From NCBI GenBank assembly GCA_023261815.1, contig JALNKA010000010.1, positions 1 through 34,152 on the forward strand: DNA of 34,152 nt, given 5' to 3'. The translations under genes were made by a program, and so were the position numbers. The notes under the pieces were generated by a model. That model made no database searches, had not been told where the DNA came from, and saw only the letters and a program-made list of their open reading frames with translations. This document shows positions 3 through 34,152 of this stretch, piece by piece. Origin of the DNA: Candidatus Wolframiiraptor sinensis (lineage in GTDB: Archaea > Thermoproteota > Nitrososphaeria_A > Caldarchaeales > Wolframiiraptoraceae). Positions within the stretch are counted from its first letter, which is position 1; every line of letters begins with the position of its first letter.

Positions 3-623
3 GATTTCGGTGATGCCTATATCTTGTCGAGGATTCGTGATGAGGTGCCGAAGGCCTTCAGAGAAGTCACGCCTTTGGATGCCGTGTTCAAGCCGTTGCT
101 GATAAAGGAGAGGGCGCTGGCCAGGCAGCTGATGAGGCTGCAGCAGATGCTGGAGCTAGGCATAGACTTCGAGGATGAGATCAGGGATTGTGAGGAGAAA
201 TTGATGATTATTCGCGGGGAGATAGTCGAGAATGCTGTGGAGAAGATCCTGAGATTCGCGGATATCGCCAGGGAGCTGGAACTGAACGATAATAATATCA
301 ATGCGCTGTCGGCGCTGGCCGGGCTACTAATTTACTTGAGGTGGCCTTATGAGGTGTCATCATTTCATAGGGCTAAGAGGCTCCTAGGACTGTATAAGCC
401 GACGCGAGAGGAGGTGAGAAGGTTCGAGGAGAGAAGCGGAGAGAAATATAGAAAGCGTTACAGCGGCTATGCTAGGAGATACCTAGTCTTGCTGACGATT
501 GCCATATTGAGCAAAGAGAGGATTTCTAAGCCGAGGGCAAGGAATCAGAAGGAGGTGTTGAGGAAGCTACTGGGAATTTTGAAGACCTATAATGAGGCTA
601 TTGCGGGTGGAGGGGCAGGATAA
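3..623 (+). CDS. IS110/Tas-like RuvC(DEDD)-coiled-coil-Nop/Tnp_20-type protein, 5'-truncated by the window edge
   Basis: The frame is open from position 3 and reads DFGDAYILSRIRDEVPKAFREVTPLD..., i.e. the DxxDA motif of the IS110 RuvC domain. It continues through a helical/coiled-coil stretch to SFHRAKRLLGLYKP...ERSG...RYSGYARRYL, which resembles the IS110 Tnp_20 'F..A..L....GL.P....SG....R..L' region. It is paralogous to the ORF at 33730-34152 and is followed directly by the repeated ncRNA-like module. Confidence 0.72.
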   Translation, partial: DFGDAYILSRIRDEVPKAFREVTPLDAVFKPLLIKERALARQLMRLQQMLELGIDFEDEIRDCEEKLMIIRGEIVENAVEKILRFADIARELELNDNNINALSALAGLLIYLRWPYEVSSFHRAKRLLGLYKPTREEVRRFEERSGEKYRKRYSGYARRYLVLLTIAILSKERISKPRARNQKEVLRKLLGILKTYNEAIAGGGAG

Positions 624-748
624 AAGCCCTGATGAGGCCTGTGGTAAATTATTTGATGCTCCAACAAGGAGTGGTGGCCCGTTTGATGCAGGTGAAAGGG
701 CTGTCCAAATGCCCCCTCCCCCGACACCACCCCTCTTTTCCCTCTCTA
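619..748 (+). ncRNA. Putative guide RNA / element right end, copy 1 (directly downstream of the IS110-like ORF)
   Basis: Outer stem AGCCCT(625-630)/AGGGCT(697-702) with K-turn-like GATGA/GA, inner stem CCTG/CAGG, two 30-nt-spaced units GTGGT-aaattatt-TGATGC (641-659) and GTGGT-ggcccgtt-TGATGC (671-689) separated by the hairpin GCTCC-aacaa-GGAGT, and a pyrimidine-rich tail. Homologous to 3555-3660 and 9109-9240. Confidence 0.65.
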
Positions 749-758
749 AATCCAATCT

Positions 759-1832
759 CTAATCCTTAAATAATAATTTGGGGAGAAAGTTCGTGTTCTC
801 TATGATCGCGTCGGCCAAGCATCTCGTGAAAAACGCATAGGAGTACTTGTTCGTCAGCACGGCTGCTAGGTGCGCTTCGACCCCCCTCTCCCTCGCTTTC
901 AGGACTAGGAAGTAGTCTTCGCCGCCATCGCCGACGTAGAGCACGCGCTTCGCCCCGAGCTTCCTGCAACATTCCAGCAGGCCCGCGGGATTAGGCTTAT
1001 CCATCTCCCTCCTATTATCCCCAGTGAAGAGTATTGCATCCGAGTTGAAGTGATGGAGAACTGGGCTAAGGATCTTCTCGGCTTCCCAGCGGCCCTTGCC
1101 CGAGAGTATGGCGAGCCCGTTTGGCGCGAAGCGCTTAAGCGCTTCCAAGACCTCGAGCTCGACCATCAGCCTCTCATTATACAGGATCCCCGGGCCATCA
1201 TAGTATCTTGGATCCACTCCATGCTTTCTCTTTATCCCCTCGTATCCGAGATAAAGCTCGCTGAAGAGCGTCGTCATCACTCCCGAGCCGTATGGGAATA
1301 TCGGCCCGATGAGCTTCCTAAACTCTCTCAGCTTCTGCGGGGAGCACGCCCTCCTCTCCAGCAACGCCTCGACATCTTCTGGTGTCACATATTCTCCGAG
1401 ATGCTTAGCCGTGCTGGAGATGAGCCATCTGAGAGCATTACCTAAGGGCTTCGAGCTACTCCAGCCGTGCGAGATCTGCCCCATGTAGTGATGAAGTTCG
1501 ATCGGCTCCAGATCTTCTCTCAGCGGGTCGGGGCATCCCAGCTCCACGAATACCGCTTGAAGTATCACTGAGACTATGTTTCTGACATTGTTGAATCCAC
1601 CGAGCATCTTCAGTAGCTGGAAGGCCTCATCATAATCGCTCCCGACCACGCAATCTATTCCAAAGAGCTGGTCGAGGTATATTGCTGTTATGAGTTTTCC
1701 AACCAGCGGGAAGGATAATGATACGTCCACGATCGTCCCATCGCAGTCGAAGATTATCGCGTCAACTTCCCTCAGGGAGTTTAGCTTCTCCTCTAGCGCG
1801 AGAACCCCGCCATCCACGATGATGTAGCGCAT
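759..1832 (-). CDS. HAD-superfamily hydrolase (TIGR01548-like, large cap)
   Basis: Motif I FDCDGTIVD, motif II LSGK, DKPNPAGL and YVGDGGED motifs III/IV; 357 aa. Confidence 0.8.
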   Translation of the reverse strand: MRYIIVDGGVLALEEKLNSLREVDAIIFDCDGTIVDVSLSFPLVGKLITAIYLDQLFGIDCVVGSDYDEAFQLLKMLGGFNNVRNIVSVILQAVFVELGCPDPLREDLEPIELHHYMGQISHGWSSSKPLGNALRWLISSTAKHLGEYVTPEDVEALLERRACSPQKLREFRKLIGPIFPYGSGVMTTLFSELYLGYEGIKRKHGVDPRYYDGPGILYNERLMVELEVLEALKRFAPNGLAILSGKGRWEAEKILSPVLHHFNSDAILFTGDNRREMDKPNPAGLLECCRKLGAKRVLYVGDGGEDYFLVLKARERGVEAHLAAVLTNKYSYAFFTRCLADAIIENTNFLPKLLFKD

Positions 1833-3506: not shown

Positions 3507-3554
3507 TTTCCACCCCACGCCATCGAGATCCATTAAATGAACTTTTCGACTTAG

Positions 3555-3660
3555 CCCACATTTAATGCTCCAGCAAAAGAGTGATCATCTAATAATGGCG
3601 AGTGAAGGGCTGTCTAGATGCCCCTTCCCTGACACTACCCATCTTTTTCCCTCGAGTTTA
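3555..3660 (+). mobile_element. 5'-truncated solo copy (copy 2) of the guide-RNA/right-end module
   Basis: Aligns to 646-748 (TTTAATGCTCCA..AGAGTGAT..TGAAGGGCTGTCTAGATGCCCCTTCCCTGACACTACCC..TTTTTCCC). Segment CATCTAATA (3586-3594) is the exact reverse complement of the right flank TATTAGATG (3659-3667). It lies between the divergent pheT and trxA genes. Confidence 0.75.
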
Positions 3661-8911: not shown

Positions 8912-9108
8912 ACTATAGCTCCCCCACAGACCGCCAGATCGTTCTCGATCTTCCTTAGAATCTTCAAGCTCATGGAGACCCCCTCCGGCTCCTTGATCAA
9001 GTAATGCATCTTGGCGGCGGCCATTTCCCCCTCCTCAGTCACCTCCACGAGCCTCTTGATGAAGTGATATTCCCTCTGGCGCTTCTTCAATATCCCTTCA
9101 ACCACCCC
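8912..9108 (-). pseudogene. Fragment of an unidentified protein-coding gene carried inside the non-autonomous element
   Basis: The minus-strand frame reads GVVEGILKKRQREYHFIKRLVEVTEEGE...LKILRKIENDLAVCGG with gene-like charged composition. Its 5' end runs into the RNA module with no credible start; no family recognised. Confidence 0.35.
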
Positions 9109-9240
9109 GATAAAAGCCCTGATGGGGGCTGTGGTCACAATTTTAATGCTCCAATATAGGGAGTGGTTGCATATTTAGTGCAGGGCTGGGCTGTCCAAAT
9201 GTTCCCTCCCCTTCTTCACACCCTCTTTTCCCTTTTCTTA
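9109..9240 (+). ncRNA. Putative guide RNA / right end, copy 3
   Basis: GATAAAAGCCCTGATG start identical to 619-634; units GTGGT-cacaattt-TAATGC (9131-9149) and GTGGT-tgcatatt-TAGTGC (9163-9181) around the GCTCC/GGAGT hairpin; GGGCTGTCCAAATG and CCCTCTTTTCCC tail conserved. Confidence 0.7.
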
Positions 9241-9257
9241 AAATTGTGCGAGCGCCG

Positions 9258-10507: not shown

Positions 10508-11086
10508 TTACTCCTCCCTCTCCCTTCTCAGGAGGTCGAGCCTGCAATCCTCGCAAAGGTATTGGCCCTCGACGTTTAACAGCATATCCGACCACTCCCC
10601 GCAGCTATCGCAGTATCCCTCAAGATATCCCTCGCCGCTTCTCCTGAGGAGGCGGAGGCCCATGATCTTCATGTTCTCCTTCACTATCTCGAGAATCTCG
10701 GGCGTTACCTGAAGTATATCCTTCAAGCTGACTATGCCGGCTAGCTTGTTCTTATAGACCACCGCTAGCCTGCTGACCCCGAGCTTGCTCATCCTCCTTA
10801 CCGCGTCCTCGATCCTCGCCTCGGGATCTATCGTGTGGAGCGGGGTGGACATTATGTCCCTCGCCTTAACCTCACTGGGCTTCGCATTTCTGGCTATGAC
10901 CTTCTCAACTAAGTCCGTCTTCGTTATTATCCCGAGCGGGGAGCCATCATCCGACGTCACTATCACCGCCCCAACCTTATACCTCATTATCTTCTCGGCT
11001 ATCTCCTGCGCGCTCTCATCTAGGCTACACTCTATCACGGGGCTCGACATAACCTCGCGGACGAGCACCTCATCAGTGATCCTCAA
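10508..11086 (-). CDS. CBS-pair protein with C-terminal Zn ribbon
   Basis: VREVMSSPVI, GIITKTDL, ARDIMSTPL, GIVSLKDIL; C-terminal CDSCG...LCEDC. TTG start. Confidence 0.9.
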   Translation of the reverse strand: MRITDEVLVREVMSSPVIECSLDESAQEIAEKIMRYKVGAVIVTSDDGSPLGIITKTDLVEKVIARNAKPSEVKARDIMSTPLHTIDPEARIEDAVRRMSKLGVSRLAVVYKNKLAGIVSLKDILQVTPEILEIVKENMKIMGLRLLRRSGEGYLEGYCDSCGEWSDMLLNVEGQYLCEDCRLDLLRREREE

Positions 11087-11127
11087 TCCCTACCACACTG
11101 CCAACATAGACGTAAAGCCAGATGCCT

Positions 11128-11245
11128 TTAAATCTTGTGCATCGTGTAGCCGCATTCCTCGCATATCAGCTTCAGCATCTGCTTCTGTTGAGTCGTCTTA
11201 GACTTCTTCCTCTTGTATCGGATACTTCTGGCCACCGTAGCCGTG
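11128..11245 (-). pseudogene. rpl44e: Frameshifted, 5'-truncated fragment of ribosomal protein L44e (eL42)
   Basis: The minus strand reads HGYGGQKYPIQ, then after a +1 shift RKKSKTTQQKQMLKLICEECGYTMHKI*. This contains the GYGGQ and KTT....LKL.C.ECG signatures of eL42; no N-terminal CxxC or start. Not in the ORF track. Confidence 0.8.
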
Positions 11246-32924: not shown

Positions 32925-33478
32925 CACCTCAGCTGAGCATCTATCAAAGACCTCGCTATAAAAGGGTTACAGCCTCCGAGAAATGCTCACCCCATACCTG
33001 CTTGTAGTAGACTATGTTCCTCGGAGGGAGGATGCATCATCCCCTTTTGTGGCGAATGAAGGCGGGCTCCACGCTTAGGCCGACTAGGCTCAAGCTCTCG
33101 AGGCATCCACGTCCTTTAAGGCTTCCACCTCCGCTCTAATTCTCTCCGGCATTCGGGGGCAATACTTTCAACCATGTTTATACACGTATCTTCTCAGAGT
33201 GCTTAAATATAAACTCAAAACGATCTATTGTAAATGCTCGACGTTTATTCGACCACCACTTCGCCGCCACCAGCTTCTATTAACAAAAATATCAGATCGT
33301 TTAGACTCATCCTCCTCCACTATTCTCTCATCTTTGACGTTACATGGATGCTTTTATCCTAGGCTCCTCCTCAGCTCGATCATTATCCCATGTGAGGCTA
33401 TCCGCGTAAGCCATTCATCTCCAGTCCATGAAACCTTATAATCGCGGTTATGGTTGATGGGTTTTTTAGGGTGGTGTT

Positions 33479-33724
33479 ATGGGCGAGGTCGTGGAGGGCG
33501 TGAGGCTCATAAATCTGACTCCCCACGAGATAACCATTTACATGGATCGAGGCGCGGTATCCATACCCCCCAGCGGCCTGGTCGCCGGGGTCTCGGTTAC
33601 CAGCATTGATATACCCATCAACCCCTCAACCGCGTGGGGTATGGTGGGGTCGAGGAGGAGGGCTTTGAGGATGCTGGCGAGGATGGCCGGCGGGATGGGA
33701 GCCGAGCTTATGAGCGGAAAGTGA
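33479..33724 (+). pseudogene. Truncated virus/plasmid-type hypothetical protein (LINLTPH...IPPSG motif)
   Basis: VRLINLTPHEITIY....VSIPPSGLVA motif, recalled from phage hypothetical proteins; similarity is lost after about 45 aa; immediately upstream of the IS110-like gene. Confidence 0.45.
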
Positions 33725-33729
33725 TCGAT

Positions 33730-34152
33730 ATGGTCAGGAGGGTTTATGTGGATACGGCATGGAAATCGAAGCTCCATACATGCTATGACCCGGCTGAGGA
33801 CGGGTTTTTTGAGGTCGAGGATCTCGCTGAGCTCGCCGGAAGATATGATGAGGTTTACATTGATTGCGCGCTTTTCCCGAATATGTGGCCTCAGCTGAAG
33901 GCGTTGATAAACGATGGCGCGAGGGTCTTCTACTTCGCGTGGCCTTGGAAGTGGAAGAGGCTACGCGAGAGATATGCCGACGATTTGAAGAGGAAGTTTT
34001 GGGAAGTGGAAGACGGATTACGGCGACGCATACGTTTTGTCGAGGATTCATGGTATGCCAAAGGCCTTTGCGGAAGTCACGCCCCTCGACGTGGAGTTCA
34101 AGCCATTGCTGATGAGGGAGAGGAGGGTGGTTAAGATCCTGAACGAGTTATA
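33730..34152 (+). pseudogene. Second IS110/Tas-like RuvC(DEDD) gene, N-terminal part, +1 frameshift near 33997-34000, cut by the window end
   Basis: MVRRVYVDTAWKSKLHTCY...EVYIDCA..., then after the TTTT slip GKWKTDYGDAYVLSRIHGMPKAFAEVTPLDVEFKPLLMRER, which aligns with DFGDAYILSRIRDEVPKAFREVTPLDAVFKPLLIKER at 3-113. Confidence 0.75.

Follow-up and report, generated by a model that had tools for sequence, protein, structure and literature searches.

In this study, the open reading frame at the beginning of a 34,152-nucleotide stretch of archaeal DNA (the window, which is contig C14 of genome G000, an assembly of 1.18 Mb in 33 contigs) was shown to belong to a compact selfish element, made up of a gene for a protein of about 300 amino acids and an RNA of about 120 nt that lies over and after the stop codon of the gene. 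The RNA was shown to carry two guide strands, the 3' strand agreeing in sense with the left half-site of the target and the 5' strand being complementary to the right half, both across a TTAA-like core; since the guides match both halves of their own site, the RNA specifies the location of its own element. We are therefore dealing with an RNA-guided, site-specific selfish element. The family is a relative of the IS110 and TIGR-Tas kind, and no description of it was found in full-text searches of the literature, supplementary tables of mined Tas and IS110 loci aside, which might list members.

Two copies of the gene are found in the window, and both are damaged (Table 1). The first, an open frame of 206 amino acids, runs off the end of the window and contig on its 5' side and terminates in TAA; its continuation was located on contig C2, where the match starts only from residue ~33 onward and falls into two different frames (10872-10979 and 10964-11161). 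The second copy begins with MVRRVYVDTA and also contains VYIDCA, and the contig on which it continues carries the RNA of that copy as well. It has TTTT where the paralog on C12 and a metagenome copy without other differences have TTT, and because of this one extra T its KTDYGDA motif stands in a different frame from the N-terminus. The intact full-length paralog (G000:C12:669-1583) encodes 304 amino acids. An earlier note on this DNA had combined the two partial paralogs into a protein of about 300 amino acids; both parts are real, being damaged copies of a gene of that length, and the C12 paralog bears out the estimated size. The motifs DFGDA, LGLYKP, ERSG and RYSG named there were all recovered from the translation of 3..623, while the long charged insert described behind LGLYKP was seen in 16 of 31 homologs, the remaining 15 having a shorter version or none. 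With the 206-amino-acid product as query, 14 matching places were detected in G000, most of them at contig ends, and the full protein gave 19 places, far above chance. An intact version of the first window copy, with identical guides, occurs in the metagenome locus L088.

The left part of the element is assembled from modules that are shared with other cassettes. One of them, here called repeat-L, is about 140-240 nt long, has a sharp common left boundary and precedes many element copies; on C23 the repeat is present as a partial tandem duplicate. Another is a promoter module, consisting of a TATA-like box and a small ORF, which was noticed upstream of this gene family and of two genes with LAGLIDADG-like motifs, and which looks like an expression cassette common to selfish genes. 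In the window, its small ORF (33479-33724) encodes 81 amino acids without a Pfam match. A divergent paralog of 285 amino acids and 38% identity (C17:29556-28700, minus strand) stands behind the same module, and complete genomes of the order contain several copies of paralogs with 25-35% identity; the superfamily extends beyond what the RNA model detects. Again, upstream of the intact gene on C12, about 670 nt (C12:1-669, locus L002) are unusually G+C-rich in a genome of ~54% G+C and contain long hairpins, and the end of C3 is also concerned. An Rfam search of the stretch before the C12 gene gave no match; it may represent a chimeric join or foreign DNA.

Table 1. Features of the element copies in the window, with related module copies elsewhere in G000 (prefixed by contig)
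Feature	Position	Strand	Remark
Damaged gene copy, C-terminal 206 codons, RuvC/coiled-coil/Nop-like	3..623	+	N-terminal part on C2, truncated and frame-shifted
TATA-like box, within the end of the coding region	586..594	+	~15-20 nt upstream of the RNA
Structured guide RNA	607..728	+	covariance model R1, 128.8 bits; fold z-score -4.5; pair counts
5' guide strand of the loop	645..658	+	positions 1-10 (645-654) complementary to right half-site
3' guide strand of the loop	672..687	+	positions 5-13 (676-684) in the same sense as left half-site
T-run (736-739) and right end of the inserted DNA, not conserved	729..767	+	absent from empty allele
Right half of target site, in 3' end of HAD-like gene (759..1832, minus strand)	768..780	+	3-nt repeat
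Third RNA copy, remnant of 3' half, just 3' of pheT-like gene	3545..3660 (approximate)	+	motif scan, alignment
Second RNA copy, gene-less	9097..9214	+	R1, 57.2 bits
Left part of second element copy	33283..33729	+	repeat-L, then promoter module with small ORF
Repeat-L	33283-33423; C33:50800-50471, C28:41412-41174, C5:19926-19756, C16:201-48, C4:195-48, C9:60870-60726, C23:17486-17377
Promoter module	33424-33724; C12:29357-29625, C28:40998-40823, C4:37110-36958, C29:66-1
Second gene copy, N-terminal part	33730..34152	+	+1 T frameshift at ~33997-34000; continues on C18

The repeated unit recognized by blastn comprises the gene and about 125 nt on its 3' side, and several copies are reduced to this 3' end. 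In the first window copy, the RNA spans the stop codon at 621-623. Its architecture consists of nested stems P1-P3 around an internal loop with hairpin P4 as the cap, and the alignment displays a conserved scaffold with two hypervariable stretches; a single internal loop is variable, the other internal loops being invariant within the subfamily. A search of G000 with R1 disclosed 18 RNA copies, scattered singly across 12 contigs, and gene-less copies still score 100-129 bits. Among the 13 of the 18 copies that were aligned (one with an insertion, two degenerate ones and two found later were omitted), base pairing was maintained in 96.3% of the cells, as against 43-52% for slid partners. With the same model, the RNA was placed directly behind the gene in nine of 19 loci of other genomes and in 57 of 80 metagenome loci, where gene and RNA share a strand; 24 of 25 pairs in the metagenome alignment A4, which was fitted to the model, carry changes on both sides, indicating covariation. 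Rfam searches of the window, of the RNA region and of two loci revealed no such family. The TATA-like box is retained in gene-less RNA copies too, and we infer that it would serve as the promoter of the RNA. In a single RNA library, represented by contigs only, the depth over the scaffold bin was 5.5, which is not a demonstration of transcription. In public hot-spring runs, the summed contig depth over the RNA scaffold exceeds that over the flanking gene 17-40-fold, and the contigs break at the guide starts, with many different guides beyond. Every one of the 14 guide pairs read out in G000 is different, and each is found once per genome. One gene-less guide RNA (C9:60483-60604) lies ~1.3 kb from the host nop5 (C9:58521-59195) and is followed by a repeat-L copy of opposite orientation; its nearness to nop5 is probably a coincidence.

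For the flank tests, the guides of each copy were compared with its own flanks, and guides paired with the flanks of other copies served as control, the thresholds having been chosen after the first matches were known. An exact antisense match of at least 8 nt was observed downstream in nine of 14 copies in G000, compared with eight of 182 pairs of guide and foreign flank, and 5000 permutations of this test reached a maximum of 4 against the 9 observed. When the guides were set by alignment columns, half of the copies (9 of 18) matched with at most one mismatch, compared with 13 of 306 controls, and the remaining nine had two or more mismatches. As for the metagenome loci, flank matches of at least 9 nt were recorded in 16 of 56, against 9 of 658 controls; the two-flank test, which asks for an antisense match of one strand downstream of the element and a sense match of the other upstream, succeeded in 9 of 38 loci (controls, 10 of 1406) and failed in 29. 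At L088, which has the same guides and right flank as the window copy, the left half matches 9/9 directly beside the left end of the element, and the same guides were encountered at the same locus in other samples (L088, L085). In the gene-less RNA at 9097..9214, positions 1-10 of the 5' guide (9135-9144) are complementary to 9240-9249 at 9/10. The intact C12 copy showed no match to its own flanks, the best alignment having 3 mismatches of 9. The element is located exactly between both half-sites, in either orientation, and the 3' strand, having the sense of the left half, would therefore pair with the bottom strand. The C23 copy has downstream a palindromic match, by which both guides would pair with one strand; it was rejected because the sister-species allele shows a coincidence with the stop-codon region, and a left half-site at 33131-33141 for the second window copy was likewise discarded, the intact metagenome copy L085 having its left junction in a different sequence.

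Orthologous loci without the element, in genomes of the same genus, display both half-sites contiguously, and R1 had no matches in 19 empty loci of sister species. The sister-species empty allele at the end of a radical-SAM gene agrees with the guides at 9/9 in the left half and 9/10 in the right half, and that at the end of a TruD-like gene at 9/10 and at ~8/10 with an indel, respectively; the empty allele at the end of the HAD-like gene, where the window copy sits, gave 6/9 and 9/10, and that at the start of a Zn-ribbon gene, where the C4b copy sits, 3/9 and 9/10. In all four loci, the element starts in G000 exactly at the half-site boundary, at a T-T/A-A step. Presence and absence are polymorphic exactly at the guide-defined junction: one contig of run X20 passes from the left flank directly into window position 772 without the element, and contigs of runs X3 and X5 include both the occupied junction and a form leaving the window at 772. 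Intact elements are bordered at both ends by 3-6-nt direct repeats around TTAA with precise junctions, as far as short junction contexts reveal. The element ends are not conserved beyond this core, the left part varies from ~270 to 1200 nt, and many copies are 5'-truncated yet retain the RNA.

Several observations concern the target sites themselves. The 3-nt repeat within the right half-site at 768-780 belongs to the occupied allele (G000, L088), while the X20 empty allele and four sister genomes are without it; it reduces the guide match and could have arisen either as an escape change or as a footprint of the insertion. As for the HAD-like protein, the insertion takes the place of its last codons: two codons and the stop codon (759-767) come from the right end of the element, the frame being otherwise open. 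The possibility that a stretch such as 729-767, from the T-run to the half-site, is host DNA, with insertion taking place at a distance like that of CRISPR-associated transposons, was rejected, as the empty alleles show it to be inserted DNA. In the interval between a PDCD5-like gene and the Zn-ribbon gene, locus L073 (genome G007) harbors a different insertion of ~430 nt at the exact position of C4b, directly after the Zn-ribbon ATG; it has no R1 match, one of its ends resembles the C-rich 3' end of the RNA with the T-run, and it is perhaps what remains of an old insertion at a common site. Moreover, a conserved hairpin of ~80 nt was noticed downstream of the HAD-like gene (sister-genome loci L046-L049; L088:20-100), as the left neighbour of the target site of the window copy. 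Its 10-bp closing stem, internal pocket and ACA directly 3' of the stem resemble those of an archaeal H/ACA guide RNA; Rfam returned no match for L046.

An AlphaFold model of the protein, based on 31 homologs, attained a pLDDT of 90.9, and its best Foldseek matches were all chains of TasR, ISCro4 and IS621. Structural re-alignment to TasR (9mty_A) gave Z 16.3 over 257 residues, covering the whole protein, as did IS621 (Z 14.5-14.8) and ISCro4 (Z 14.7), so the gap between TasR and IS621 is only ~1.5; TasH was aligned to residues 119-298 (Z 12.2), RuvC to residues 2-118 (Z 8.6) and Nop5 (3pla_A) to residues 120-298 (Z 6.7). The predicted structure shows a RuvC domain, which is active-looking, followed by a coiled coil and a Nop-like RNA-binding domain. 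The earlier note had proposed such a RuvC-Nop fold, to be given up if neither profile nor structure searches detected it; the profile searches (HMM libraries, hhalign) found nothing, and because the structure search finds the fold, with TasR, IS621, ISCro4 and TasH as best matches and Nop5 as a weaker one, the proposal stands. The acidic tetrad it had picked out (the Asp of VYVDTA, that of VYIDCA and the two of DxxD) is also confirmed: D9, D46, K95, D97, D100 and A101 are invariant in the 31 aligned homologs, and in a wider alignment, which reaches down to 27% identity, this still holds for D46, K95, D97 and D100. The serine of RYSG, one of the two SG dipeptides pointed out there, is not a conserved nucleophile: its position holds S in 23, N in seven and Q in one of the 31 homologs, and the wider alignment contains no invariant Ser. 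The modelled C-terminal domain contains no beta strand, leaving the serine hairpin of IS110 without a counterpart, and by inspection the serine stretch of one IS110 protein lies opposite a deletion or the charged helical insert of this family.

At the sequence level, hardly any of this is visible. A Pfam scan of the protein gave no match even at E up to 10, PF01548 and PF02371 included; among the NCBIfam models, transpos_IS110 appeared at E 0.3 with 10 bits against a cut-off of 140; phmmer and profile searches of PDB sequences produced coiled-coil noise only, and a six-frame search of the whole G000 genome with PF02371 had 0 matches. Comparison by hhalign with one canonical IS110 protein of a related genome was limited to 11 columns around a GL motif (probability ~1%), and that with the host Nop5 profile reached a probability of 2.6%. 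This last result bears on the reading in which a box C/D-like RNA guides RNA modification, with a Nop5 paralog as its protein. What it has in its favour is the Nop-like fold of the C-terminal domain, together with UGAUGA and GUGA, which face each other across a stem in the G000 subfamily; the coiled coil, the archaeal host and an RNA with two guides in a pseudo-two-fold arrangement are likewise shared with Nop5 and its box C/D sRNAs. These boxes are replaced in the distant subfamily, and because they are not conserved, a K-turn and L7Ae are a lead only. Against this reading, moreover, the guides match DNA flanks on opposite strands, the protein has no match to the Pfam Nop domain (PF01798), and its RuvC residues are intact, whereas those of Nop5 are lost (Vaysset 2024). 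We therefore consider a role in RNA modification very improbable.

With reference to the elements of IS110/IS1111 (IS621, ISCro4), the likeness comprises the three-part fold, an acidic tetrad in the same order, a structured RNA encoded inside the element, and site-specific insertion with the core at both junctions. According to the part of Durrant 2024 used here, in the IS110 target-binding loop the left guide pairs with the bottom strand and the right guide with the top strand, the core being included in both; the loop strands of our RNA would similarly address opposite strands of the left and right halves and overlap at the core. The family differs from IS110/IS1111 in having Asp where IS110 has Glu, one programmable loop in place of the separate target and donor loops of the bridge RNA, a TTAA-like core that is longer than a dinucleotide, and one site per guide pair per genome, as well as in the lack of conserved element ends, of the serine and its hairpin, and of matches to the two IS110 Pfam domains.

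These comparisons raise the possibility of an RNA-guided recombinase or transposase that works without the serine and with one loop, and whose RuvC-like tetrad itself would exchange or transfer strands at the TTAA-like core picked out by the two guides; the element would then excise and integrate as a unit, with its ends set by the flanking half-sites and not by a donor-binding loop. Such an enzyme would suit the tetrad in DEDD positions, the RNA being part of the element as in IS110/IS1111, and the polymorphism exactly at the guide-defined junction. The precise junctions and the 3-6-nt repeats holding TTAA at intact copies are also explained more simply by a recombinase or transposase than by break repair, and guides to opposite strands that overlap a core have the geometry of the IS110 target-binding loop, which speaks against homing. 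It is nevertheless at odds with the absence of a conserved Ser and of the beta hairpin, with the single variable loop beside invariant ones, and with element ends that have no conserved sequence beyond the core, so that a free donor could not be recognised; the occurrence of each guide pair once per genome, the frequent 5'-truncated copies, the orientation that is not fixed and the missing matches to PF01548 and PF02371 point in the same direction. We regard this recombinase as possible, at clearly less than even chances.

We favour over it, at about even chances, a TasR-like nuclease that cuts the empty allele, that is, homing. The protein would act as a guide-directed hydrolytic RuvC nuclease on the intact empty allele, in which the halves are contiguous, and the occupied allele would be immune because its half-sites are split. 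Once cut, the empty allele would be repaired from the occupied chromosome, by which the element is copied in, and rare capture at look-alike sites would give rise to new lineages, 5'-truncated copies and variable ends. Homing fits better than transposition with the unique guide pairs, the same guides at the same locus elsewhere, the variable ends, the 5' truncation and the insertion in both orientations, and the missing serine, the single loop and the left part composed of shared modules also speak for a TasR-like homing nuclease. Results that count against it are the C12 gene without a match to its flanks, the copies in G000 and the metagenome loci that match poorly or fail the two-flank test, the 3/9 left half at the C4b site and the small Z-score gap between TasR and IS621. 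As to whether a guide directs insertion or cuts the empty allele, a question raised beforehand, a guide RNA was indeed found and it matches the empty allele, and the choice between nuclease and insertion leans toward the nuclease.

By fold, TasR of the stem-loop type is the closest match, and it has in common with the model of our protein a size of ~300 amino acids, the RuvC domain, the coiled coil and a helical Nop domain without the serine hairpin. In the part of the TIGR-Tas literature drawn on here, the stem-closed RNA likewise holds two guides of ~9-10 nt, one for each strand of neighbouring half-sites. In this arrangement our RNA agrees with the two spacers of 8-12 nt of TIGR-Tas, except for the overlap at the core: the spacers of TIGR-Tas are tandem and, in the portion of Faure 2025 (PMC12045711) consulted, described as non-overlapping. 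The TIGR-TasR systems differ in their tandem array, compared with single dispersed RNAs, each fused to the 3' end of a gene, and in residing in a virus or CPR bacterium, compared with an archaeal chromosome. Furthermore, the guides of this family match the insertion site of their own element, and the unit itself is therefore mobile. TnpB and IscB (OMEGA) and free-standing homing endonucleases resemble the element in being selfish, with a nuclease that targets its own locus in the element-free state, as we propose here, and the RNA of TnpB/IscB overlaps the 3' end of the nuclease gene in the same manner. The nuclease architecture is unrelated, and in our case the guide has two parts and lies inside the RNA, instead of being read through from the flank. 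A separate transposase gene adjoining the element was not seen.

Homologs of the protein form 69 clusters, all unnamed or 'hypothetical', from metagenome-assembled genomes of Nitrososphaerota/Bathyarchaeia. A collection of 1.84 billion proteins contributed 63 representatives. Species-representative genomes yielded 19 homolog loci, with titles such as Candidatus Geocrenenecus and Caldarchaeales, and metagenome contigs 191 relatives of the protein; an ESM Atlas cluster with 956 members is without Pfam families. The distribution of the element is patchy: none of 13 same-genus genomes has a close homolog (three have matches of ~30% identity), and in the four of them in which element sites were checked, these were empty. 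This patchiness counts against a domesticated system working in trans, in which one or two intact proteins would use the dispersed RNAs for DNA binding, repression or defence, like TIGR-Tas, the match to the own flank being a relic of the arrival of the RNA gene. That G000 contains 18 RNAs and one clearly intact gene of the subfamily (on C12), and that gene-less scaffolds keep high scores, would agree with such a system, and parts of a preprint (bioRxiv 10.64898/2026.09.09.750476) describe catalytically dead TasR and TasA as acting as repressors. The acidic residues of our protein are invariant, though, a PADLOC scan of it gave no match, and a search of G000 with all 11-mers of the 14 guide pairs detected only matches at about chance level besides the own flanks. 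A domesticated role is in our estimate unlikely.

Coming back to the mobile element, a more far-reaching form of the recombinase proposal would make it a minimal serine-free DNA integrase, formed by a RuvC-Nop protein of ~300 amino acids and a single-loop RNA of 120 nt, and at the same time the surviving archaeal lineage linking IS110/TIGR-Tas with Nop5 and the box C/D RNPs; a clade of this sort in the archaea has been proposed to be possibly extinct (Vaysset 2024). This combination is rather doubtful, at perhaps one chance among several. If true, a TTAA-centred site would be chosen by two guides of ~10 nt, and the ends would be set only by the flanking half-sites.

Nop-fold RNA-guided systems, namely the IS110 bridge recombinases, TIGR-Tas and the box C/D RNPs, became connected with one another only in 2024-2025. 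The family reported here adds to them a branch in archaeal chromosomes that does not show itself in sequence comparison; having neither a Pfam domain nor a tandem array, it could not be found by Pfam-based or array-based mining. It combines a TasR-like protein with pairing like that of the IS110 target loop, one loop sufficing. Many of the breaks between contigs of this assembly are accounted for by the element, and the same probably holds for related assemblies from hot springs. For each copy, the guide, the occupied site and, in sister genomes or other samples, the empty site are at hand, and the targeting rules can therefore be read from sequence, while the choice between nuclease and recombinase is directly testable with a protein of ~300 amino acids and an RNA of 120 nt from a thermophile.
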